A stretch of DNA of 64,000 nt from Oligoflexia bacterium (GTDB taxonomy: Bacteria; Bdellovibrionota; UBA1018). The stretch is taken from NCBI GenBank assembly GCA_963758495.1, contig CAVWVI010000003.1:896001-960000 (forward strand). The letters run 5' to 3'. A program made the position numbers and the translations under genes. How positions within the stretch are numbered: the stretch's first letter is position 1; the number at the start of each line of letters is the position of its first letter. Under the pieces are notes generated by a model. The model made no database searches, was not told the origin of the DNA, and was given only the letters and a program-made list of their open reading frames with translations. Below, piece after piece: positions 4,719 to 60,740 of the stretch.

Positions 4719-6813
4719 TCATCTTATAATTATGCCAGATTTAATTTTGATCTCTTCAGCAATCTGGGGAGGAACGGGCTCATAATGAGCAAATTCCATA
4801 GTATACGTTGCGCGGCCTTGAGAAGAAGACCTGAGAGCAGTGGAGTATCCAAACATAGTCGCTAGAGGCACTTCAGCCTTAATCACTTGAAGCCCATGTC
4901 TTGATGACATATTAATAATTTTTCCACGACGACTATTTAAATCCCCAATAACTCCGCCCATGTAATCATCGGGACACACAATCTCACACGACATCATGGG
5001 CTCCAAAATAAGTGGAGTTGCTTTCAGAGCAGCCTCTCTAAATGCCATAGATGCTGCAATTTTATAAGCTATTTCAGTTGAGTCCACATCATGAAAGGAC
5101 CCATCCAGTAGGGTCGCCTTAATATCCACCACTGGATATCCCGCAACAATCCCCCCAAGCATAGATTCGCTGAATCCCTTTATCTACTGCCGGAATAAAT
5201 TCCTTTGGAATCGCTCCCTCTCGAATCGAATTTACAAATTGATATCCGAGACCTTTACTTAAAGGTTCAAACTTCAGTACGCAATGACCGTATTGACCTT
5301 TGCCACCGGACTGCCGAATAAACTTACCTTCGCCTTGAGCAGTCTGAGAAATAGTTTCTTTATAAGAAACTTGCGGCTGACCTACATTTCCTTCAATTTT
5401 GAACTCGCGGCGCATTCGATCAACGATAATCTCTAAATGAAGCTCACCCATACCACTAATGAGCGTCTGCCCAGTATCTTCATTAGAGTGAACACGAAAA
5501 GAGGGATCTTCCATGGCAAGCCGCTGTAACGAAGTCGCCAATTTTTCTTGATCAGCCTTCGTTTTTGGTTCAATCGCAATAGAAATCACAGGCTCAGGAA
5601 ACTCAATTTTTTCGAGTAGAATAGGATGAGCTTCATTACATAAAGTATCACCTGTAAAAGTAAAACGAAGGCCGACGGCCGCTGCTATATCACCTGCTTC
5701 AACTTTCGAAATATCTTCACGTTTATTTGCGTGCATCTGGAGCAATCTTCCTAATCGCTCACGTTTGCCTTTAGCGGCGTTATAAACCATTACTCCTGAT
5801 TCAATACTTCCTGAATAAACACGAAAATAAGTCAGCTGACCTACATAAGGATCATTCATGATTTTGAAAGCAAGAGCCGCAAAAGGCTCATCTGCACTCG
5901 CTTTTCTAGTAAGAATTTTTTCTTCGTTGTGGAGATCTTTGCCTTCAATAGGAGGCTTATCTAAAGGTGATGGCAGATAATCCACAATTGCATCTAGCAA
6001 GGGCTGGACACCTTTATTTTTAAAACTAGCCCCGCAAATCACGGGAACCAACTTCATCGCTAAACAGCCTTTTCGAATGGCTCCACGAATCTCGTCTGAA
6101 GTTAACGTTTGACCATTTAAATACTTATCGGTGATCTCATCATCACAGTCTGCGGCTGCCTCTAAGAGCTTCTCTCTGTACTCTTGAGCTTCAGCACGCA
6201 ATTCCTCTGGAATCTCATGTTTTTCAAAAGTTGCTCCGAGATCTTCCGATTGCCAAACAACAGCATTCATTTCAATGAGATCAATAATTCCCTGAAATGA
6301 CGTCTTCCTTACCCCAAGGAAGCTGAAGAAGCAACAGGACGGGCATTTAAACGCTCTTGAATTTGCGTAACAACATCAAAAAAATCCGCTCCCACACGAT
6401 CCATTTTATTGATGAAAGCAATTCGAGGAACATGGTATTTATTTGCTTGTCGCCAAACTGTTTCGGATTGAGGCTCAACTCCTCCCACAGCACAAAAAAC
6501 TGCGACTGCACCATCGAGAACACGCAGATGAACGTTCAACTTCAATCGTGAAATCAACGTGTCCAGGAGTATCAATGATATTGATTCGATGATTACGCCA
6601 AAAACAGGTGGTTGCCGCAGATGTAATCGTAATCCCACGCTCTTGCTCTTGCGGCATCCAATCCATGACGGTCGTGCCTTCATGCACTTCACCTAATTTA
6701 TGCGTCTTACCGGTATAATAAAGAATTCGTTCAGTTGTCGTCGTCTTACCGGCATCAATATGGGCCATGATGCCGATATTACGAGTCTTTGTACTCTGAA
6801 GTTGGCTCACCAT
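4719..6813 (-). CDS. fusA: Elongation factor G (split into four ORFs by frameshifts)
   Basis: [58 protein letters not shown]. Confidence 0.96.
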
Positions 6814-47497: not shown

Positions 47498-47537
47498 CCC
47501 TAACTTGGCAGAAGGTAAAAAGGTAAAAGATCACATC

Positions 47538-49025
47538 ATGGCATTAGAGATTAAACAAAGCCTGAAACTGAGCCAACAACTCGTAATGACTCCACAGCTT
47601 CAACAAGCAATCAAATTGCTGCAGCTGAATCGAATGGAGCTTCAAGAAGTAGTGACTCAAGAAATGATGGAAAATCCGATTCTGGAGGAGTTAGCAGAAA
47701 CTCCAGAAGGTGAACAAGCTTCACTTGCGGCATCTTCCGAAACACAACAAGATCCAGAAGCAGAACAACTTCGAGACGAAGAGTCGTTTATCAAAGCCAA
47801 ACCCCAAGAAGAGCAGCTCGTAGCTGGCAAAGATGATTTTAATTGGGAATCCTACGTAGAAGAATTTAATTCCTCTTCAAGCTCCACCCCTTCGATGCGT
47901 GAGATTAATGAAGAACTCCCCAGCTTTGAAAATGTCCTCACTAAAACGACTTCATTAGAAGACCATCTTGCCTGGCAGCTTTCAATGATTTCCATCACCC
48001 AAGAAGAGAAAAAACTGGGTGAACTCATCATTGGAAACTTATCCGATGATGGTTATCTCAATGCAAATTTAGAAGAGCTTTCCAAAGAAGCCGGTCTTGA
48101 ACTTGAAGATGCTGAAGAAGTCTTAAAAATCGTGCAGAATTTTGACCCCCTTGGGGTAGGATCCCGCAATTTGCAAGAGTGTCTCTCCATTCAAGCTCGA
48201 TTCATGGTCCCTAGACATCCTCTTGTCGAAACCATTATCGAACATCACTTAGGTGATTTAGAACGAAAAAACTATGGAGCCATCGCCAAGGCTCTCATGA
48301 TTACTCTCGATAAGGTCATTGAAGCAACTAAGCTTATTTTGGAGTTTGAACCTAAACCCGGAAGATCGTTTCACAGCAGTGATACTCAGTATATTACACC
48401 GGATATTTATGTTTACAAAGTGGCTGACGAATTCATGATTGTTCTCAACGAGGACGGCATGCCCAAGCTTCGAATTTCGCCTTATTATAAAAATATATTA
48501 GCTTCAGCCCAAAGAGATCAAAATAAAGTAACGAAAGAATACGTTCAAGATAAACTCAGATCTGCAGTCTGGCTGATCCGCTCGATCCACAATCGACAGA
48601 AGACCATTTACAAAGTAACTGAAGCCATTGTGAGACGTCAGCGAGAATTTTTTGAAAAGGGCGTCCAGCAACTCAAGCCCATGATTCTCAAAGATGTCGC
48701 AAACGATATCGGTATGCATGAATCCACGATTTCACGCGTAACCACGAATAAATTCGTACACACTCCCGTAGGAATCTTTGAGTTGAAGTACTTTTTCAAT
48801 TCGAGCATCAGCGCTGCAGACGGAAGTGATTCTCTGGCAAGTGAAGCAGTGAAGGAAAAGATTCGACAGATGATTCAACGAGAAGATCAAAAAAATCCTC
48901 TTTCGGATCAAAAAATTGTCGAACTTTTGAGAATTGAAAATATTGAGATTGCTCGCCGCACCGTTGCAAAATATCGAGATATGCTTGGAATCTTATCATC
49001 AGGGAAGCGAAAGAAGATTATTTAA
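47538..49025 (+). CDS. rpoN: RNA polymerase sigma-54 factor
   Basis: MTPQLQQAIKLLQL, HESTISR, RpoN box ARRTVAKYR. Confidence 0.98.
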   Translation: MALEIKQSLKLSQQLVMTPQLQQAIKLLQLNRMELQEVVTQEMMENPILEELAETPEGEQASLAASSETQQDPEAEQLRDEESFIKAKPQEEQLVAGKDDFNWESYVEEFNSSSSSTPSMREINEELPSFENVLTKTTSLEDHLAWQLSMISITQEEKKLGELIIGNLSDDGYLNANLEELSKEAGLELEDAEEVLKIVQNFDPLGVGSRNLQECLSIQARFMVPRHPLVETIIEHHLGDLERKNYGAIAKALMITLDKVIEATKLILEFEPKPGRSFHSSDTQYITPDIYVYKVADEFMIVLNEDGMPKLRISPYYKNILASAQRDQNKVTKEYVQDKLRSAVWLIRSIHNRQKTIYKVTEAIVRRQREFFEKGVQQLKPMILKDVANDIGMHESTISRVTTNKFVHTPVGIFELKYFFNSSISAADGSDSLASEAVKEKIRQMIQREDQKNPLSDQKIVELLRIENIEIARRTVAKYRDMLGILSSGKRKKII

Positions 49026-51634: not shown

Positions 51635-51925
51635 ATGGCCATTCAGTCCTTTTCCAACTCTGACACTCAGACGTTTTTCGAAACCGATAAGGTCACTAAG
51701 AAAGCAGGTTGGCAGGGCATTGCTAAAGTAGCTAAGAGAAAACTAGATATGGTCCACTATGCGGGCTGCCTGGAGGACTTAAAATCTCCACCTGGAAACC
51801 GACTAGAAGCCTTATCTGGAAACTATGCTAGCTACCATAGCATTCGGATCAATGACCAGTGGCGGATTGTATTTCGATGGACAATGTCAGGCCCAACAGA
51901 GGTTGAGATCACTGACTACCATTGA
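51635..51925 (+). CDS. higB: HigB-type (RelE/ParE family) toxin
   Basis: [31 protein letters not shown]. Confidence 0.95.
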
Positions 51926-51937
51926 GGGAGGATTATT

Positions 51938-52237
51938 ATGATGATTGAAATGAAGAGAAAACCCACCAGCCCCGGAGAGATTCTTTCTGAAGAATTTTTA
52001 AAGCCCATGGGACTAACTCAAAAGCAGTTTGCCGACCACCTCGGCTGCGATGTCAAAGTCATTAACCGCATCGTTAATGAAAAGACCTCCGTTACTGCAG
52101 AGATGGCGATTAAAATCGGTGCCGCTCTAAATACCTCTCCTGACTTTTGGATCAATGCGCAGAGGGCAATCGATCTGTTTGATGCCAGCAAGAAGGTAAA
52201 GAAGCTCCCTAAATCGCTCTTTAAAAAGGCGAGCTAA
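51938..52237 (+). CDS. higA: HigA antitoxin (HTH)
   Basis: PGEILSEEFLKP, TAEMAIK, FWINAQ. Confidence 0.95.
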   Translation: MMIEMKRKPTSPGEILSEEFLKPMGLTQKQFADHLGCDVKVINRIVNEKTSVTAEMAIKIGAALNTSPDFWINAQRAIDLFDASKKVKKLPKSLFKKAS

Positions 52238-52846: not shown

Positions 52847-55339
52847 TCATTTAGGCAATTTCTTATTCAACTCAGCTAGTAAGCGATTCAAATAATCTGA
52901 AACTTCTAGAAAATGTCTTTTAGTATTAGAATTATACAGCATATAATTCTTATTTATATTTTCCAGGTTCCTTTTATATGCCCTCAGCTGCCAATCTATT
53001 TTTTTTAAATTTGAGATACTTAATTCATCCTGATTTTTTTTCATGAATTCGTCGTACTTATGTAAAACCGAATCGAGGGCCGATAAATTTGCATTAGTTT
53101 TACTTCTATTTAACTTTGAAAACTGTTTAATAGATCTGGCCGCCAAATTCTTCAATTCAGCCGCGAGCTGATTCTCCTTCTCCCGTTGTCTCTTCTTCTG
53201 AAGAAGATCATCAGGACTTGCCTTTTCATCATTTACCTGTTCCAGATCTTTCTTCTTCTTGTTCAGTACTTTAATTTTCTCTGCCATTTCTGAAATTAAT
53301 TTTCCATTCTTATCAGAATAAGAATTTTGATTCTGTTGATCACCTGAAATTAATTGAGAAGAATGAATTGAAACAGGTGAGGCGAGGGGAAAATTTGGAC
53401 CTCCATGTTTAAAGTAAGGGCTCAAATAATAATGAGAATCTGCTTCTTTGGCTAAATGGTCAGCCACCTCTGCATCAGACTTATTTTTCGTGCCCATATT
53501 TATTTCATTATGGATTTTTGCAGCCTCAAGGTAACTTTCTGCGGCTTGAACTCCTAACTTCATGATCTGTATCGCCTTATTTACCTTTTCACTTGCAGCA
53601 TTTTTAGCTTCCTGTGTTGCGGCAGGATCAGCTTTGATACGCTCCAACTCATCAATTGCGTGTATCGCTGCCAAAGCATCTATCCGTGCAGAATTCAAGC
53701 GAGACAACGCTATTAACCCTTGGGCTTTGCCTTCAGGGGATACAGAAGGAACTGATAATTCACTATCAATTCCGATGCTCAACTGACTGCCTCCCTTCAG
53801 CTTGTCTAGTATTTCATTCATCCTTGGATCGAGACTAAGAGGTGGCTTTTTTATAAGTGAATTAAATCTTTCTCCCTCACGGTTATTTTTCTCACGCATG
53901 GCCTTAAGCTCATCACCCTTAATTTGTTTATTCTTGTCAATAGACTCATACAACTCTTTAAAATCCCGAGCAGCCTCAAGAACTGTTGAGTCATTACTAA
54001 GTCGATCCTTAGGTTCCACTGAATCAGGAAGGACGTCGAACTTATGATCTTGGCGATTTTTAAGCTCCTGTATTACCGCACCTGAAGGGGTGCTTGCAGT
54101 TGCCGAATTTCCTTCCTCGACTTTCTCCACTTTTGAAGCTTCGGCATGAGGAGAGCGCGGATTGGGTTGCATAGGGGGTGGCATTGGGATAGCCAATGCA
54201 CCCAAAGCTGCAATCGGTGCATTCAAGCGGTTTCGGTATGCAATCATATTCTTTTTTAAATCATTGATATCATACTTAATATAATGAGCTAACTTCTGAT
54301 TATCTAGTCGAGACAAGTTTTTGCCTGATTGAACTAAATTTTTCTCGATTTTACTTAAACCTGCCGCGATGGAACTCAAGTGATTGTTATTAAGGGGTCC
54401 ATCAATATCAAATAAATACCTTCCATACTCTTTTAAAATGTCATGCGCTCCTTCTAGCTCCATTCTTGTTTTATCTTGATTTGAATTTTTAAAAGAAAGT
54501 TCGTCAGCAATTACTCCATAATGATTAAGAGTCATCGTTTTTTCAGCTGAACTCAGATTTACTTGAGGGCGTTCTTCTTCCTGAGTATCGTCTTTATCGA
54601 CATCACTCTCTTCATCATATCGATTATCAACTCCATGCCTACTATCGGAAGCTTGAATCCTACTATCTGCGTACTTCATCATTCTTGCAATTTCTTGGAT
54701 CTTATTGATCTCTTCTTCAGTGGCACTCTTTTGTGTACAGGAAATACAAATAGGCCCTTCGAATTGCTGACCCGTCTTTCTTTTTTTTTCAAAAGACTTA
54801 ATCAGACTCATGTAACCTTGAGCAGACATATTCTTTAACTTAGGCTTGAGTTCAGTATCGAGATCTCTTAACTTTCCAATTACAGCAGGAATCTGCTCAT
54901 TCACCGCCCGCAGCTTTCTTTTACTCTCGTCTAATAGTCTTGCTAAATCTCTCACATCAGATCTGGTCTTTTCGTATGTATCCCTTGTTATTTCATTTGA
55001 ACTTTTAGATGAAAAAAGTTGCTCCACTGTGTTTTTATGAAGACTCTTTTGAGTTCGGATCGTCTTTTCATATTCCTGAGTTAGTTCTGGAATCAGGTTT
55101 TCTAATCGATCTCTCTTTTTCTTTATCAACTCCAGCTCATCCTCATAGGCCATCAGATCTTCTAGCTTTATCAATTCCAATGAATCTAAATAGATTCCCT
55201 CACTATTCAATTGCCACCGAAGCACCGAAGTATCTAGTGGATCTTCACGCTCTAGGAGAACCCTTGCCTCGCCACGATACGGGGCAAGCGTTGCTAATAC
55301 CCAAATCCAAAGGAAGCTATGAATTACAACTTTCTTCAT
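52847..55339 (-). CDS. Large secreted coiled-coil hypothetical protein
   Basis: Signal peptide MKKVV...GEA from ATG 55339; heptad regions, CxxC, Pro-rich linker. Confidence 0.75.
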   Translation of the reverse strand: MKKVVIHSFLWIWVLATLAPYRGEARVLLEREDPLDTSVLRWQLNSEGIYLDSLELIKLEDLMAYEDELELIKKKRDRLENLIPELTQEYEKTIRTQKSLHKNTVEQLFSSKSSNEITRDTYEKTRSDVRDLARLLDESKRKLRAVNEQIPAVIGKLRDLDTELKPKLKNMSAQGYMSLIKSFEKKRKTGQQFEGPICISCTQKSATEEEINKIQEIARMMKYADSRIQASDSRHGVDNRYDEESDVDKDDTQEEERPQVNLSSAEKTMTLNHYGVIADELSFKNSNQDKTRMELEGAHDILKEYGRYLFDIDGPLNNNHLSSIAAGLSKIEKNLVQSGKNLSRLDNQKLAHYIKYDINDLKKNMIAYRNRLNAPIAALGALAIPMPPPMQPNPRSPHAEASKVEKVEEGNSATASTPSGAVIQELKNRQDHKFDVLPDSVEPKDRLSNDSTVLEAARDFKELYESIDKNKQIKGDELKAMREKNNREGERFNSLIKKPPLSLDPRMNEILDKLKGGSQLSIGIDSELSVPSVSPEGKAQGLIALSRLNSARIDALAAIHAIDELERIKADPAATQEAKNAASEKVNKAIQIMKLGVQAAESYLEAAKIHNEINMGTKNKSDAEVADHLAKEADSHYYLSPYFKHGGPNFPLASPVSIHSSQLISGDQQNQNSYSDKNGKLISEMAEKIKVLNKKKKDLEQVNDEKASPDDLLQKKRQREKENQLAAELKNLAARSIKQFSKLNRSKTNANLSALDSVLHKYDEFMKKNQDELSISNLKKIDWQLRAYKRNLENINKNYMLYNSNTKRHFLEVSDYLNRLLAELNKKLPK

Positions 55340-55634
55340 AGTTGAATTTTTTCGATCGAATTTCGGATTAAGCATATGACATCCCCGAATCATTTTATTC
55401 GACTTCACTACAACCACCCTTTAGAGGATACTTTTGTAAAACCAATTTAAAGTGACCTGTTGTTATTTATTATATTATAAATTGATAATTTTATTAACTA
55501 TTTTAGCACACAGAAAACCATTTACTGCAAGTATCTGATTTTAAACAATATATATACCAGAAGTATAAAATATAAATATATATTATTTAATAATAACAAT
55601 GATAAAATAAAAACTAGACAAGGGAACGATCATC

Positions 55635-57698
55635 ATGAAAATAAACAAACGTAAATTAGTCATCCAATCAATTACAATCCTATTATTAAGCATACTAGAA
55701 ATAAACTCCGCATGGAGTATACCTAACGATGACATAATGACTGATCTACTTTACAATGCCATATTAAAAAATAACATCATAATGGTAAAAACAGAGATTA
55801 AACTAGGTGCCGATGTAAACAAAGTTGATATGGTAGGATGGACACCTCTTACTTTTGCTGCATCCGAAGGTAATTTAGGCATAGTAAAAGTCTTAGTTGA
55901 AAGTGGCTCAATAATAAATCCAAGCCCGGGTAACTGGACTCATACACCACTTTATTCAGCTGTTCTTTCTGGTAAAATAGAAGTTGTTAAGTTTTTGCTT
56001 AATAACAATGCCAGCATAAATCAGAAAAACTTTATGGGTGAGACTGCACTCTATGCAGCCGTGGAAAATGAAAACAAAGAGATCATTAAACTACTTATTC
56101 ATTATGGGGCTGATATAAATATTCAAAATTATGATAAAAAAACATCTTTTGACGAAGCAAAAAAAAGGAACTTGGACCAATTTATAAAAAATTTATTGGC
56201 CGAACGCGATCAAGTCAATCATGTTCAAAATAAAAATAGAGTCATGCCAGAATCAAATTACAAAAGAGGAAGCGATCTCCCTCAAATAAAGGAGGTTCAA
56301 CCTGCTCTAGAGACACTTAAAAAAGCTGCGAGCTTAGGGAACCTAAAAGCACAATCTAAACTATTAGAAATGTATTTAAACGATACCAAAGTTGATCGCA
56401 ATTTATTCACACAAAAGGTTCTTCATTGGTACAAAAAGGCGGCTCTTCTCGGAGATGCAAAGGCACAATTTAACCTTGCAGAGCTTTATAATAATGGCAT
56501 CGGGGTTGAGAAGAATCAAAGTACAGCACTCATGTGGTACAAAAAGGCTGCGCAACAGGGTGATGAAGCAGCAAAAGCGCATCTTAATTTGCTTGGCACT
56601 CAACCTAAAAGTGAAACCGCCTCTATTGTAAAAATACCTGAAGGAAAAGAGACGAATTATCAAAAAGGAATTGATTTTCTGAAAAATAAAGACCTTGAAG
56701 GGGCGCGAGAGGCTTTTAAAAAAGCTGCCGATGGGGGTGATGCAAAGGCACAATCCCATCTTGGTTCTATCTATCTTGATGAACATAACTACCGAACAGC
56801 AGCCTCATGGTTTGAAAAAGCTGCCATTCAGGGCGATGTAAAGGCACAATTTAATCTTGGACTACTCTATGCACAGGGCCTTGGAGTTAAAGCAGACGAG
56901 AATAAAGCACTTGTTTGGTTTAAAAAGTCGGCTCTTCATGAAGATGGAGATAGTGAAATGCAAAATGATTTAGGAGAGATGTATGCCAATGGAGAATCTG
57001 TAAAAAGAAGCCTTTCAGAAGCAGTTAAATTATTTCAAATGGCTGCTAAACAAGGAAATCAATCCGCAATGGACGCGCTCGATAATTTTAGTATTCGACG
57101 TGAAAATGGGATCGAGCTAATTACAAAAGCGGATGATATGCCATTTTCTAAGCTAAAAAAGATGACAAATGATTGTTTTGATGCTGCATTAGCAAAAAAG
57201 GCATTACTTCAAGAAAGAAAGATAAAGACACAGCAACTCAATAAACTGAAAGAATCAGCTCAAAAAAATTCACATTCTACTGAGGGAATTACGGTTAAAA
57301 ATCAAATTAAAGCATTAGAAAAGGAAATCAATACGATATCCAGTGACAATCAATGTAGCATTTGCTTTGATTGTTATTTAGATAAAGGATCGATTGTTAC
57401 CCCTCAGTGTCAGAAATTAAGAAAAGATGATTTCAAGGAAGATAAAGCTCATCATTTTTTCTGTACGGACTGCTTTTATGAACTTCTGGCCTCATCATCA
57501 GCGCAAGAATGCCCGATCTGTAAATATGGAGAATGTGACCAATTTCTTACTGAAATTAACTTTGACCCAACAAGTGAAGAACAACAAAAACTAGAGCACA
57601 AAAAATTAATTTCAGATAAAAGCAAAAAAGAACTTTCTAATGAAGAAAATCCAAAGCCTGTCCAAGGAGCTTCTTCTTCGTCCACTCAAGCTCGATAG
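55635..57698 (+). CDS. Secreted ankyrin-repeat + Sel1-like repeat + RING-finger protein
   Basis: Signal peptide; GWTPL/HTPLY/GETALY ankyrins; AQFNLA/WYKKAA Sel1 repeats; CSIC...C...HFFCTDC...CPIC. Confidence 0.88.
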   Translation: MKINKRKLVIQSITILLLSILEINSAWSIPNDDIMTDLLYNAILKNNIIMVKTEIKLGADVNKVDMVGWTPLTFAASEGNLGIVKVLVESGSIINPSPGNWTHTPLYSAVLSGKIEVVKFLLNNNASINQKNFMGETALYAAVENENKEIIKLLIHYGADINIQNYDKKTSFDEAKKRNLDQFIKNLLAERDQVNHVQNKNRVMPESNYKRGSDLPQIKEVQPALETLKKAASLGNLKAQSKLLEMYLNDTKVDRNLFTQKVLHWYKKAALLGDAKAQFNLAELYNNGIGVEKNQSTALMWYKKAAQQGDEAAKAHLNLLGTQPKSETASIVKIPEGKETNYQKGIDFLKNKDLEGAREAFKKAADGGDAKAQSHLGSIYLDEHNYRTAASWFEKAAIQGDVKAQFNLGLLYAQGLGVKADENKALVWFKKSALHEDGDSEMQNDLGEMYANGESVKRSLSEAVKLFQMAAKQGNQSAMDALDNFSIRRENGIELITKADDMPFSKLKKMTNDCFDAALAKKALLQERKIKTQQLNKLKESAQKNSHSTEGITVKNQIKALEKEINTISSDNQCSICFDCYLDKGSIVTPQCQKLRKDDFKEDKAHHFFCTDCFYELLASSSAQECPICKYGECDQFLTEINFDPTSEEQQKLEHKKLISDKSKKELSNEENPKPVQGASSSSTQAR

Positions 57699-57703
57699 GA
57701 CAC

Positions 57704-58222
57704 CTACAGCGAAGCCGGGACAATTCGTTCAATTTCAATTTTAGAAAGTCTATTAAATTCAATTTTGCAGATGGTCCTACTTTTATCAACTCCTATACAC
57801 AGTTGTCCTACCTGATATATCGAATGCGCCTCAACTATCGGAGCCAACAAAAATGAAACGAAGTCCATTCCAATTACTGTTTTAAAATCAAATAATTCAT
57901 CTCTAAATCTATTGGAAAAATTATCGTCAGTAACCCAGTCCTTGACGTTACAAATCGGTATACCTTCAATTAGATTTTTTGTACCAGGCTCCCATTGTAC
58001 TTCGCTTTTTTGAGCATTTTCAATACCAGGAATTTTAATACAGCAAATGGCCCCCGTATCAGGGTTCATCCCCACCTCTATAAGTGATTTTTTAAAATTA
58101 CCTGTTCGCCAGTAAATCGGCATAGAAGAGTGCGTATCTCTGCACTTGAAAACAATGGTTGCATAATCATCAATTTCTAATGAGCAGGTTTTTGGAAGTA
58201 ACGAATCTATAATCTGTAACAT
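57704..58222 (-). CDS. Probable immunity protein of the upstream polymorphic toxin
   Basis: Small ORF starting 8 nt after the toxin stop, co-oriented; YWRTG...LIEVG. Confidence 0.7.
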   Translation of the reverse strand: MLQIIDSLLPKTCSLEIDDYATIVFKCRDTHSSMPIYWRTGNFKKSLIEVGMNPDTGAICCIKIPGIENAQKSEVQWEPGTKNLIEGIPICNVKDWVTDDNFSNRFRDELFDFKTVIGMDFVSFLLAPIVEAHSIYQVGQLCIGVDKSRTICKIEFNRLSKIEIERIVPASL

Positions 58223-58230
58223 TTATCATC

Positions 58231-60699
58231 CTATCTATATAAAGCATGAATTAGAGCAGGAAGTTGACCTACTTGACGCGGAACTCCAAACTTCAATTCC
58301 CATCCTCCCACCTGTATTATTTCTCCAAATCTTACTCCCTGACGTGTAGCAGCTTCTACAGCAGCTTTCAAACTTCCCAATTGCACTTGGCTTGCCAAGC
58401 GCACAGCTTCAGGAGCCCCATTTACAGCCCGGCCTACTGCATACTCAGCAATATGCTCAGTAGCATTTCCATTTACCCAAAACTTTCCCGTACTTGCGCT
58501 TAACTCAAAAGACTTTGGAATGACCGATCCCTTATATACAGGTTGAGTAGCTTTAATCGAATCCCAAACAGTCCCTGTAGAATCCACAACCCTGGACTCA
58601 ACACTTCTCGCTGCACTACTCGCACCACTATCTACAGCAGCACCTACCTCAGCTCGTAATACTTTATTAGCCGCAGCTCCAGCTGCCACTTTAGCACCTT
58701 CATTACAATTGTGAACTAAAACATCAGCTGCATAATAATTATGATTCCCTTGAACATCTAAATTATAAACATCAAACTGGCCATACTCTTCACTGATATC
58801 CTCTAAAAGAACAATCTCTCCTGAGATGTTCTGGAGTTGATCCCCGATTCGAAGATCTCGAGCTTCAACCCAATCCTTTTTATTTACAACATAGAATGGG
58901 TGTTCATCAGTGGTTTTTAATATTTTTCCATCGAAAAAAAGCTGAATCAAGTGGTCGGTAGTATTTTTAAATACCTGTTGCACTTGACGGCATTCACAAC
59001 CCTCTTCACCTAATTCTAGATTACAGCTTGCAACAGCGTCACCCACTTGTATCGATGCAATCGGTTCCGAATGGTAACCCATCGCGCTATCATCTTTTAC
59101 ACAAATCGGGGTTTCACCAGGAAAGCAAAATACTTTGCCTGCACCATAAACTGCTGCTTGAGCTACACCTTTTAAAGCCATTTTCCCTACAGCACTTGCA
59201 AGTAATAAGGTATCTTCGGGGTTGGGAATAAGCGGCTTATCTTCAGCTTCAAGTTTTTGTCGGTACTGAGCTTCGATGGCTTCCACCTCTGCCCTAATGT
59301 GCGCAGTTTCAATCGCTTCTACCTCAGCCTTGATCCGTTGCTCCTCAGCTTCGGCCTTTTGTTTCTGCTGGGCTTCGTAAGCTTCCACCTCTCTTCGAAG
59401 TTCAGCTTCAACGTCCCTTACTTCTTTTCCATAATTCTTAGATTCATACTCCTCTACCTCTCTTCGGAGTGCAGCTTCAGCATCATCCTCGTCATTTTGC
59501 TGATGTCGATTACTATCGTTCTGATGGGTCGTAGCTTTCCGCCGTTGCTCAGCCTCCATCATTCGATTCACTTCAGCTTCATACGCTTCTGCTTTATTTC
59601 GATTTTTCTTGGCCTCAACTAACTTTCTCTCTGCCTCAGCTCTTTGTTGTTCCTGAAGTTTAAGCAGTTGTGCCTCTGCTCGGATCCTTCGAAAGTTTTC
59701 AGCTGCAATCCATTGTTGTTTCTCTTCGAGCTTATCTTGGTTCTCTTTTTTCTTTGCGAACTCTTCCTCTTGTTTTTTCTGCCTCTCCGCTTCAATTCTT
59801 CGCTTTTCTTCAAGCTTTTGCTCTTTCTCATCAGCCTGTCGTTGTTGCTCAGCTCTAAATCGTTCAGCCTGAGCTGCAAGCCTTTTCTTCTCCTCATCAA
59901 TTCGTTGTTGGCGCAAAGCTTCAAGTCGTTGTTGTTCAGCCTCGATCTCTTGTTGCCTCTTAAAGTCACGTTGCCGCTTTTCCTCAGCTTCACGTTTCTT
60001 TCGTGCTTCATGTTCAAGCTTTTGCCTCTCTGCGACTTCACGCCTTTGTTGTTCTTCAGCTTCACGTCGTCGTTGCTGTTCTCCTTCAATTCGTCGTTGA
60101 GGATTATAAAAATTTTCCAGAACTTGTGCCAACTCTGCAACATCAGATGCAGTCTGACTCCTATGTCGATGTTGTTTCACAAAATCTCTAAAATTTTCCA
60201 TCGCCCATGTTAACACCTCGATCTGATCCTTAAGTCCTCCTAGTTGCCTTGCGAGTGTAAGCAACTTTTGATACTCATTTTCCCGATGCTGAAGCATCAC
60301 ATCAAATTGTTGCTGTTGGAGCTGGTAATTAAATCGTTGCTGTTGAAGTTGGGCATTAAACATTTGAGCTTGTTGCATCCCCATAACTCCATACATGTTC
60401 GAAGACTGCTGTGGCCCAGGGACATTAAATTGAGGGCGAACTCGAAGATTATTTAATGGTCCAGGTTGATTATAAACCGGACGAGGTGCCGATCTCTGCT
60501 GTAAGGGTTGTGAAGGTGCTGACCGAAAATTTCTAGATGAGCCGGGATCATTTGCCGAATTTGATATTGCTTGAACCTGAGGTACAGAGACTAGAGCAAA
60601 CGATGTGCACAAGATCCCTACTTTTATCGTATCTAAAGAGAGAGTTAAGTGCTTAATCAACTTCATAAACATAATTTTTCCGATCCTAATATTAAACAA
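58231..60699 (-). CDS. Polymorphic toxin: signal peptide, Gln-rich region, charged helical stalk, Hint domain, C-terminal toxin-like domain (start possibly ATG 60672)
   Basis: CFPGETP...TTDEHPFY...VYNLDVQGNHNYY...LVHN/C Hint motifs; ~158-aa tip. Confidence 0.85.
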   Translation of the reverse strand: MFNIRIGKIMFMKLIKHLTLSLDTIKVGILCTSFALVSVPQVQAISNSANDPGSSRNFRSAPSQPLQQRSAPRPVYNQPGPLNNLRVRPQFNVPGPQQSSNMYGVMGMQQAQMFNAQLQQQRFNYQLQQQQFDVMLQHRENEYQKLLTLARQLGGLKDQIEVLTWAMENFRDFVKQHRHRSQTASDVAELAQVLENFYNPQRRIEGEQQRRREAEEQQRREVAERQKLEHEARKKREAEEKRQRDFKRQQEIEAEQQRLEALRQQRIDEEKKRLAAQAERFRAEQQRQADEKEQKLEEKRRIEAERQKKQEEEFAKKKENQDKLEEKQQWIAAENFRRIRAEAQLLKLQEQQRAEAERKLVEAKKNRNKAEAYEAEVNRMMEAEQRRKATTHQNDSNRHQQNDEDDAEAALRREVEEYESKNYGKEVRDVEAELRREVEAYEAQQKQKAEAEEQRIKAEVEAIETAHIRAEVEAIEAQYRQKLEAEDKPLIPNPEDTLLLASAVGKMALKGVAQAAVYGAGKVFCFPGETPICVKDDSAMGYHSEPIASIQVGDAVASCNLELGEEGCECRQVQQVFKNTTDHLIQLFFDGKILKTTDEHPFYVVNKKDWVEARDLRIGDQLQNISGEIVLLEDISEEYGQFDVYNLDVQGNHNYYAADVLVHNCNEGAKVAAGAAANKVLRAEVGAAVDSGASSAARSVESRVVDSTGTVWDSIKATQPVYKGSVIPKSFELSASTGKFWVNGNATEHIAEYAVGRAVNGAPEAVRLASQVQLGSLKAAVEAATRQGVRFGEIIQVGGWELKFGVPRQVGQLPALIHALYR

Positions 60700-60724
60700 T
60701 TATAAATATTATTTATTTAATATA

Positions 60725-60740
60725 AGCAACGGACGTGCCA
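60725..60740 (-). promoter_or_regulatory. Sigma54 promoter TGGCACGTCCGTTGCT
   Basis: Perfect TGGCAC-N5-TTGC upstream of toxin gene; IHF-like ATTCAAGGGTTTA at 60756-60768. Confidence 0.8.

Follow-up and report, generated by a model that had tools for sequence, protein, structure and literature searches.

A gene in the genome of an Oligoflexia bacterium (Bdellovibrionota; UBA1018) probably encodes an exported toxin that kills rival bacteria: its Hint domain would release a C-terminal tip, the tip would cut tRNA with the help of EF-Tu, and the small protein encoded behind it would protect the producer and its kin. The gene lies on the reverse strand at 58231-60699 of the window, a 64,000-nucleotide stretch of contig CAVWVI010000003.1 (assembly GCA_963758495.1, positions 896,001 to 960,000 of the forward strand). 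Taken alone, the toxin and its immunity protein are ordinary. What looks undescribed is the Hint, which belongs to a clade with an extra pair of cysteines that is restricted to one family and sits on proteins variable at both ends. Judged from the genes alone, the toxin would be a variant within the class of Hint polymorphic toxins exported by Sec and the type II secretion system (T2SS), with class 1 MafB and UmbC as its nearest counterparts. Below, G000 is the genome carrying the window (92% complete), other G numbers are related genomes, L numbers are loci and P numbers are proteins.

Results

The tip and its immunity partner

A first-pass annotation of this DNA had described a signal peptide, a Gln/Pro stretch, a long charged helix, an intact Hint and a tip of 158 residues, with a small open reading frame (ORF) 8 nt behind the gene. 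The small ORF is there, and the anatomy is borne out by the large ORF, the PT-HINT match and the motif residues, and for the signal peptide by hydropathy (Table 1). Residues are numbered from the TTG start, which is absent from a paralogue in the same genome; the database gene call (P0003) starts at Met10 and gives 813 aa. PT-HINT is the sole Pfam family on the 822-aa protein (E 2.5e-15, better than the cut-off). The domain opens with Cys525 (59127), carries T597-D-E-H600 and closes with His663-Asn664 at 58708, followed by the +1 residue Cys665. By eye and hydropathy, the signal-peptide-like core reaches 2.34 over 11 residues, and the region as read from the sequence has no lipobox and no twin Arg.

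Table 1. Features of the toxin locus, in window coordinates
Feature	Position	Strand	Remarks
Polymorphic toxin gene	58231..60699	-	822 aa counted from TTG; start probably at Met10 (60672) or Met12
Predicted Sec signal peptide	60568..60672	-	basic start, apolar core, VQA cleavage site
Gln/Pro/Asn-rich region	60295..60567	-	residues 45-135
Short true heptad segment	60166..60306	-	residues about 132-178; inside the part 84% identical to the paralogue
Charged helical stalk	59242..60099	-	residues 201-486 (286 aa), single-alpha-helix-like
Gly/Ala-rich apolar pre-Hint segment	59128..59241	-	residues 487-524; 74% identical in the paralogue
PT-HINT / bacterial intein-like (BIL) domain, A-type	58708..59127	-	Cys525 to Asn664; extra pair Cys559 and Cys568
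Tip	58234..58707	-	Cys665 to Arg822, 158 aa; Ala/Gly linker, then tRNase domain
CdiA-CT EC869-like BECR tRNase	about 58234-58578	-	His749, Tyr753, Gln771, Arg808, His818, Tyr821
Immunity gene, CdiI EC869 homologue	57704..58222	-	172 aa, 8 nt past the toxin gene
Sigma54-type -24/-12 motif, TGGCAC-N5-TTGC	60726..60740	-	same exact motif before the paralogue and gspC; putative function

A homology search with the tip alone matched 7VMC_B, the tRNA nuclease CdiA (CdiA-CT EC869; E 3.5e-27), and the 172-aa protein matched 7VMC_C, the CdiI immunity protein (E 3.6e-13); that is, the two match both partners of one solved complex. The toxin of this complex, a BECR-fold protein of E. coli EC869, cleaves tRNA acceptor ends on EF-Tu/Ts, and mutating H216, R271 or H281 lowered its toxicity (PMC9071432). 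With EC869 numbering mapped through a chain offset of 21 residues, derived from the alignment, these three residues are identical in the tip (His749, Arg808 and His818), as are the EF-Tu contacts Y220, Q235 and Y284, though not L221 and M237. A search of G000 for EF-Tu with a short motif did not find it.

Among 27 other loci with an EC869-type tip, a homologue of the 172-aa gene lies directly downstream in 14 (E<1e-3, with E-values computed within that small set), and a profile adds four more. Homology and co-occurrence together support the toxin and immunity gene proposed earlier, and the pairing is common, not strict. At L001, L002, L003, L005, L006, L013, L017 and L165 the tip is paired with a second downstream protein of 131-144 aa, likely an alternative immunity family. 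Twelve long ORFs carrying the tip were scanned: four are haemagglutinin/DUF637 proteins, five are RHS, two are TPR and one is without assignment. Because it is found on haemagglutinin/DUF637, RHS and TPR ORFs, the EC869-type tip is a mobile, ordinary warhead.

Polymorphism within the genome

Looking for the same N-terminus with another tip and immunity gene had been proposed as a check, and the paralogue in G000 is such a case (C4:301785-303755; whole locus C4:301785-305216, L028 7786-11217). It is 84% identical to the toxin over residues 1-200, 74% over the pre-Hint segment and 94% over the Hint, and the upstream DNA is also common to both. Its stalk has about 100 aa, against 286 aa in the toxin. 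It ends in a different tip, followed by an Imm8 gene (E 5.9e-11) and then by an orphan Hint-tip cassette that starts inside a Hint and has its own small ORF. Neither the paralogue tip nor the cassette tip has a match in the PDB; by eye only, the former agrees with the motif that Zhang 2012 gives for Ntox7 with Imm8. At a third locus (C4:710702; L029 8703-11506), a gene that has no tip encodes a repeated Cys-rich head and a Hint whose last residues are His-Asp-Cys; behind it come a toxin-type gene in split form, an ORF of 66 aa and one that resembles a transposase. A Cys-rich head like this one also occurs at L065 5464-5895.

By homology and co-occurrence, then, the system has the marks of a polymorphic toxin: a C-terminal toxin domain, an adjacent immunity gene, a common N-terminus with other tips, and orphan cassettes. 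Tips and immunity genes differ behind near-identical Hints, and we infer that recombination at the Hint has exchanged them.

A Hint clade with an extra cysteine pair

The Hint query returned 16 proteins, and a 15-row profile then found 166 representatives at E<=1e-30, the best 150 of which were pooled with the first set. We define the clade as the domains in this pool that score at least 130 bits (n=54); its member proteins take in four from G000 as well as near-duplicates and fragments. Both extra cysteines are present in 46 of the 54 domains and in 2 of 249 Hints that score lower; the two columns are part of the profile, yet the score gap is wide. The +1 Cys is found in 53/54, against 22/268 and 10/50 in two sets of other Hints, which are mostly non-toxin Hints; both toxin-like controls have it. 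In a quick tree, 51 clade rows split from 20 other Hints with an SH-aLRT of 91. The best solved structure for the clade profile is the A-type BIL 2LWY (E 6e-21), and the profile also matches the Hint of 8W20, UmbC (E 4.4e-15).

The clade is confined to one family. Its profile matches 8 of 74 other genomes of the family (six at 130 bits or more; G004 and G103 below 90) and 0 of 41 genomes in other families of the order, and in a phylum sample it matches 6 of 57 genomes of the family and 0 of 343 outside. Searches of the open-access literature, supplements aside, turned up no account of a Cys-pair Hint clade, nor of toxins in which such a Hint is the constant part between two variable ends, and an additional file of PMC3482391 could bear on the point.

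What surrounds the Hint varies on both sides. Clustering puts 41 N-terminal regions in 30 groups and 41 tips in 29. An apolar N-terminal segment is present in 34 of 54 members; 23 of these 34 have a charged stretch of 40 or more aa, and 18 of these 23 also have a tip of 100 or more aa. An apolar 15-mer lies beside the Hint in 40/54. The tips include Ntox33, Ntox8, LHH, WHH, colicin-E3-type and Ntox24, and the downstream genes scanned include Imm8, Imm40, Imm45, DUF4279 and DUF2750. Some members have CdiA-like carriers (P0094, with a haemagglutinin repeat; L060, with a weak DUF637), some are tip-less, with RCC1, ricin-lectin or Cys-rich heads and tails of 10-27 aa, and one protein has two Hints. 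A clade Hint on a CdiA-like carrier is also seen at L163 5149-7614 (G086), though a ShlB search of G086 found none.

Other Hints, in other architectures, occur in G001, G029, G042, G044, G030, G022 and G004, and we left these aside. Relatives also have a different type of secreted Hint that lacks the terminal His-Asn (L055 5299-6204, L056 2105-3226, L057 5541-6836, and L045); by eye, it adjoins MACPF-like and subtilase-like genes, and it resembles what we take to be the Bdellovibrio BIL type.

An N-terminus without a known carrier domain

The N-terminus had been described as free of RHS, haemagglutinin, MafB and WXG/LXG motifs, and this stands. Over residues 1-524, Pfam at E<=10 gave no two-partner secretion, haemagglutinin, RHS/YD, DUF1020, WXG100/LXG/LDxD or ALF domain, and NCBIfam gave no carrier family; the one weak Pfam match, on residues 1-200, was DUF4763 (E 0.13). 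Searches with the first 215-260 residues covered proteins of 30-1439 aa. Only the genome's own two genes matched among those of 452-1439 aa, and nothing matched among those of 30-451 aa or in 115 other genomes of the order. The ESM Atlas had no usable match for residues 30-515 and, for P0010, only generic PT-HINT clusters at 0.79-0.82. An AlphaFold2 model of residues 45-260 from a 2-row alignment (mean pLDDT 77, pTM 0.52) is disordered to residue 100 and then forms three helices. Foldseek against the PDB with this model, a check suggested earlier, found no known carrier (best E 1.3). Residues 45-135 are 21% Gln, 11% Asn and 11% Pro.

The stalk was first called a coiled coil, which fits residues about 132-178, where heptads are good (a/d apolar fractions up to 0.88). 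It does not fit the long charged part, residues 201-486, where these fractions are mostly 0.5 or less. That part consists of 23% Glu, 14% Arg, 14% Ala, 13% Gln and 10% Lys; it is 51% charged and 15% apolar, with no Pro. Opposite charges are paired at i+3/i+4 with a z of 6.0 against shuffles, and the stalks of six relatives have the same bias (z 2.4-4.2). Coiled coils also have i+3/i+4 salt bridges. From its composition and charge pattern, most of the stalk looks like a stable single helix rather than a coiled coil.

Promoter and export machinery

The sigma54-type motif that had been noted before the toxin gene is present, as judged by what we take to be the -24/-12 consensus. Within the window it is weak evidence when taken alone, with one exact match against 0.11 expected and a match in 11 of 100 shuffles. 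Across the genome there are 11 exact sites against 4.5 expected by composition, and in 1587 upstream regions the exact motif occurs 6 times against 0.12 in shuffles and motifs of 9 or more out of 10 occur 38 times against 0-8. Because the motif is enriched upstream of ORFs, this genome likely has a sigma54 regulon. Three of the six exact upstream motifs precede gspC and the two toxin genes. The sigma54-like sites (C4:358362 and 37 others) are rich in signal-peptide proteins; the genes behind them include gspC, a secretin gene of Tad type (C3:446717), a recA-like gene (C4:908858-910066) and numerous genes for small secreted proteins. An rpoN-like gene lies in the window at 47505-49025.

gspCDEFG are confirmed in G000, with the exact motif 33 nt upstream of gspC, and later gsp genes were recognised by eye; GspC is delta-type, which fits a Bdellovibrionota lineage, as do the Tad-like pili. 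TssB of the type VI system, VirB4 and the tube of extracellular contractile injection systems were not found in this 92%-complete genome, where positive controls matched, and TpsB/ShlB numbered 0 against 7 in a control genome. The sole FHIPEP gene sits in a flagellar cluster, and the genome encodes a flagellum, a DsbA-like protein and VKOR. According to Zhang et al. (PMC3482391), HINT goes with T2SS, type V and type VII secretion and TcdB/TcaC, not with type VI secretion or PVC. G000 also has two RHS-core proteins away from the toxin (C4:780389-785671 and C4:587679-590144), one with a signal-peptide-like start.

Ankyrin repeats are abundant in G000, with 85 Ank_2 matches in about 32 ORFs, 27 of which have an apolar N-terminal segment; this count is the highest among 116 genomes of the order. 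Examples are C5:154058-156496, C2:78015-80531, C3:745315-747771 and C1:117049-118632. Several ankyrin ORFs end in Cys/His clusters that by eye resemble the IBR domains of RING-between-RING ligases. The ankyrin ORFs and their apolar starts suggest contact with a eukaryote and heavy Sec-dependent export, and a protist-associated lifestyle with Sec/T2SS effectors is possible. An ATP/ADP translocase search of G000 was silent, as it was in the controls.

Neighbouring genes

Upstream of the toxin, the next gene is a divergent SCO1/SenC gene. On the other side, 55635-57698 (+) runs towards the immunity gene, stops 5 nt short of it and encodes 687 aa with a signal-peptide-like start, ankyrin and Sel1 repeats and a weak C-terminal RING finger; its product looks like a eukaryote-directed ubiquitin-ligase effector. 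At 52847-55417 (-) is an 856-aa ORF with a signal-peptide-like segment, long charged helices and no family match, and at 51635-52237 (+), by eye, a HigB/HigA-like toxin-antitoxin pair. An EF-G-like gene at 4719-6692 (-) is broken up into three ORFs, and several genes for ribosomal proteins seem too short. Assembly indel errors possibly lie behind both, and could also account for some split genes elsewhere.

Discussion

How does this toxin relate to known systems? With the Sec/T2SS class of Zhang et al. 2012 (PMC3482391 Table 1, section 37) it shares a signal peptide (by hydropathy), a HINT before the toxin, an adjacent immunity gene and restriction to one lineage, and it has no other export signature. 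Examples of that class (MAFB-N, Microscilla-N, APD1/2) share one conserved N-terminal domain, whereas here variation is as great at the N-terminus as at the tip, and the Hint alone is common; section 37 expects more lineage-specific N-termini. Class 1 MafB of Neisseria likewise has a signal peptide, an A-type BIL, a variable tip and an immunity gene, and its downstream cassettes begin a few residues inside the BIL (PMC4287609), as at our paralogue locus. Here, however, there is no DUF1020 and no adjoining mafA, and a long charged helix and an extra Cys pair in the Hint are added. Streptomyces UmbC (PMC11062931; PDB 8W20) also has a long helical stalk that ends in HINT and toxin. Our protein differs in having no TAT signal, no ALF repeats and no umbA/umbB-like neighbours seen, and in a stalk that looks single-helical where that of UmbC is a folded-back coiled coil. 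The toxin would work like class 1 MafB and UmbC, yet without their defining features.

Other known systems resemble it in fewer parts. The tip and immunity protein are homologous to CdiA-CT/CdiI EC869 (PDB 7VMC; PMC9071432), with H216, Y220, Q235, R271, H281 and Y284 kept, but the protein has no haemagglutinin repeats, DUF637 or VENN, no TpsB was found in the genome, and a Hint precedes the tip. The terminal His-Asn is that of the A-type BIL 2LWY, but here two further cysteines are conserved and the +1 Cys hardly varies. RHS/YD repeats and an RHS core are absent, and in place of the WXG100/LXG/LDxD leader of type VII toxins there is a signal-peptide-like start. Compared with SitA lipoprotein toxins it lacks a lipobox, in the form that we take the pattern to have.

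Is this, then, the undescribed carrier class that the first-pass annotation proposed? Only in part. The absence of a known carrier domain holds, but no conserved carrier domain defines a class: the N-terminal regions of the clade are diverse, and this one is limited to two genes of one genome. Moreover, signal peptide, HINT and toxin make up the default Sec/T2SS class (PMC3482391 Table 1), and stalk, HINT and toxin follow the UmbC plan.

We propose the following mechanism. The toxin gene would likely be transcribed by sigma54 jointly with the T2SS operon, as their common motifs suggest. After Sec export the protein would fold in the periplasm, where a Cys559-Cys568 disulfide would likely form. 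Exit would most likely be through the T2SS, because other systems were not found and gspC carries the same promoter motif. The charged helix, a spacer of variable length that could reach about 40 nm if unbroken, would keep Hint and tip away from the N-terminal end. By analogy with A-type BILs, for which this step is established, cyclisation of Asn664 would free Cys665-Arg822. More speculatively, a Cys525-Cys665 disulfide could tether the cut tip until it meets a reducing cytoplasm; a Cys1-Cys+1 disulfide is reported for an archaeal intein (review, PMC5874633). The apolar Gly/Ala segments beside the Hint may aid membrane passage, although entry is the weakest step and this part is speculation. 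Inside, the tip would cleave tRNA acceptor stems on EF-Tu, as its EC869 homologue does. Anatomy, homologies, polymorphism and gene content were read directly; from them we infer the dynamic steps, including export, cleavage and entry.

Several observations weigh against this account. Proteins that leave through the T2SS are as a rule compact and folded, and this system makes no injections into cells, which leaves entry unexplained; no receptor-binding domain was found. The two toxin promoters are one duplicated sequence rather than independent, and no motif of 9 or more out of 10 was found near 12 other clade-related gene starts checked. Leu221, Met237 and Arg263 of EC869 are changed in the tip, and Met237 and Leu221 are EF-Tu contacts. 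Among the 27 loci with an EC869-type tip, seven carry a different downstream gene of 131-133 aa and two carry none. Finally, G000 also has type IV and Tad-like pili.

The pili raise an alternative: the same toxin could leave through Tad/Kil-like or type IV pilus contact sites, or by vesicles or lysis, instead of through the T2SS. We consider this unlikely, though worth keeping in view. G000 carries both pilMNOPQ-like and Tad-like clusters, FHA-like genes can be made out by eye beside the Tad-like ones, and a 9/10 sigma54 motif also precedes the Tad-type secretin. Elsewhere, the Kil apparatus of Myxococcus kills prey on contact through effectors that are unknown (PMC10433427), and MafB secretion did not depend on the secretin PilQ (PMC4287609). 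However, it is gspC that has the exact sigma54 motif in common with the toxins, and the toxin loci have no positional link to pilus genes.

Could the Hint splice as well as cut? With Cys1, TxxH, His-Asn and the +1 Cys all present, splicing is chemically possible because of that last residue, and in cis or between molecules it would join tips to other N-terminal parts, including the tip-less heads. The +1 Cys is far more frequent in the clade than in other Hints, one member has two Hints, and in three of four loci seen in context (L048, L161 and L029, not L158) a tip-less gene lies directly upstream of a toxin-type gene. We nevertheless doubt it strongly. The controls for the +1 Cys are mostly non-toxin Hints and the toxin-like ones also have it, a disulfide tether accounts for this residue equally, and the downstream gene is broken in two of three tandem loci. 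On the quick tree the short-tailed members do not group together (7 changes for 7 rows), a pattern to be expected if tips were lost repeatedly, and two reviews are at odds over whether A-type BILs ligate.

A target inside a eukaryotic host, either organelle translation or other bacteria in the same host, is comparably improbable. The ankyrin count of G000, the ankyrin-Sel1-RING gene next door and the ankyrin-rich genomes among other clade bearers (G107, G028, G086 and G085) favour it. On the other hand, a cognate immunity gene together with orphan cassettes suggests that bacteria are fighting bacteria, the clade occurs in G020 and G023 with almost no ankyrins while G108 is the reverse, and kin are not independent. 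Killing co-resident bacteria would in any case be compatible with the exported antibacterial toxin that we favour. Least credible is a selfish or decaying module, in which the tip would come off within the producing cell and the pair would serve for addiction without ever being delivered: splits or truncations are seen at several clade loci (L029, L159, L161), but signal-peptide-like starts are intact in 34/54 members, the Cys pair is conserved, stalks are charge-patterned in 7/7 tested and the tips are common to CDI and RHS toxins.

What would such a toxin mean for this family? It would be a stripped-down polymorphic toxin, with known warheads and no conserved delivery domain, encoded in a genome in which searches for type VI, two-partner, VirB-type and contractile systems came up empty. 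Should toxins of this kind, once exported by the T2SS, reach the cytoplasm of bacteria, they would do so by an entry route that awaits description. Whether pre-toxin Hints only cut or also splice in nature is an old question, and the clade lends itself to a clean test of it, because the +1 Cys is almost invariant and Hints that are 94% identical sit on different proteins in one cell. A further reading, which we think improbable, takes the disulfide-fitted Hint as a covalent connector. Heads and tips would be shuffled as genes, and tips would also be joined post-translationally to heads from neighbouring tip-less genes, either by splicing between molecules or through a redox-released Cys1-Cys+1 tether; the heads would be a lectin, an RCC1 propeller or Cys-rich or low-complexity parts, borne on charged helical stalks. 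If true, this would amount to combinatorial protein splicing in nature, serving to direct T2SS-exported toxins to their targets.

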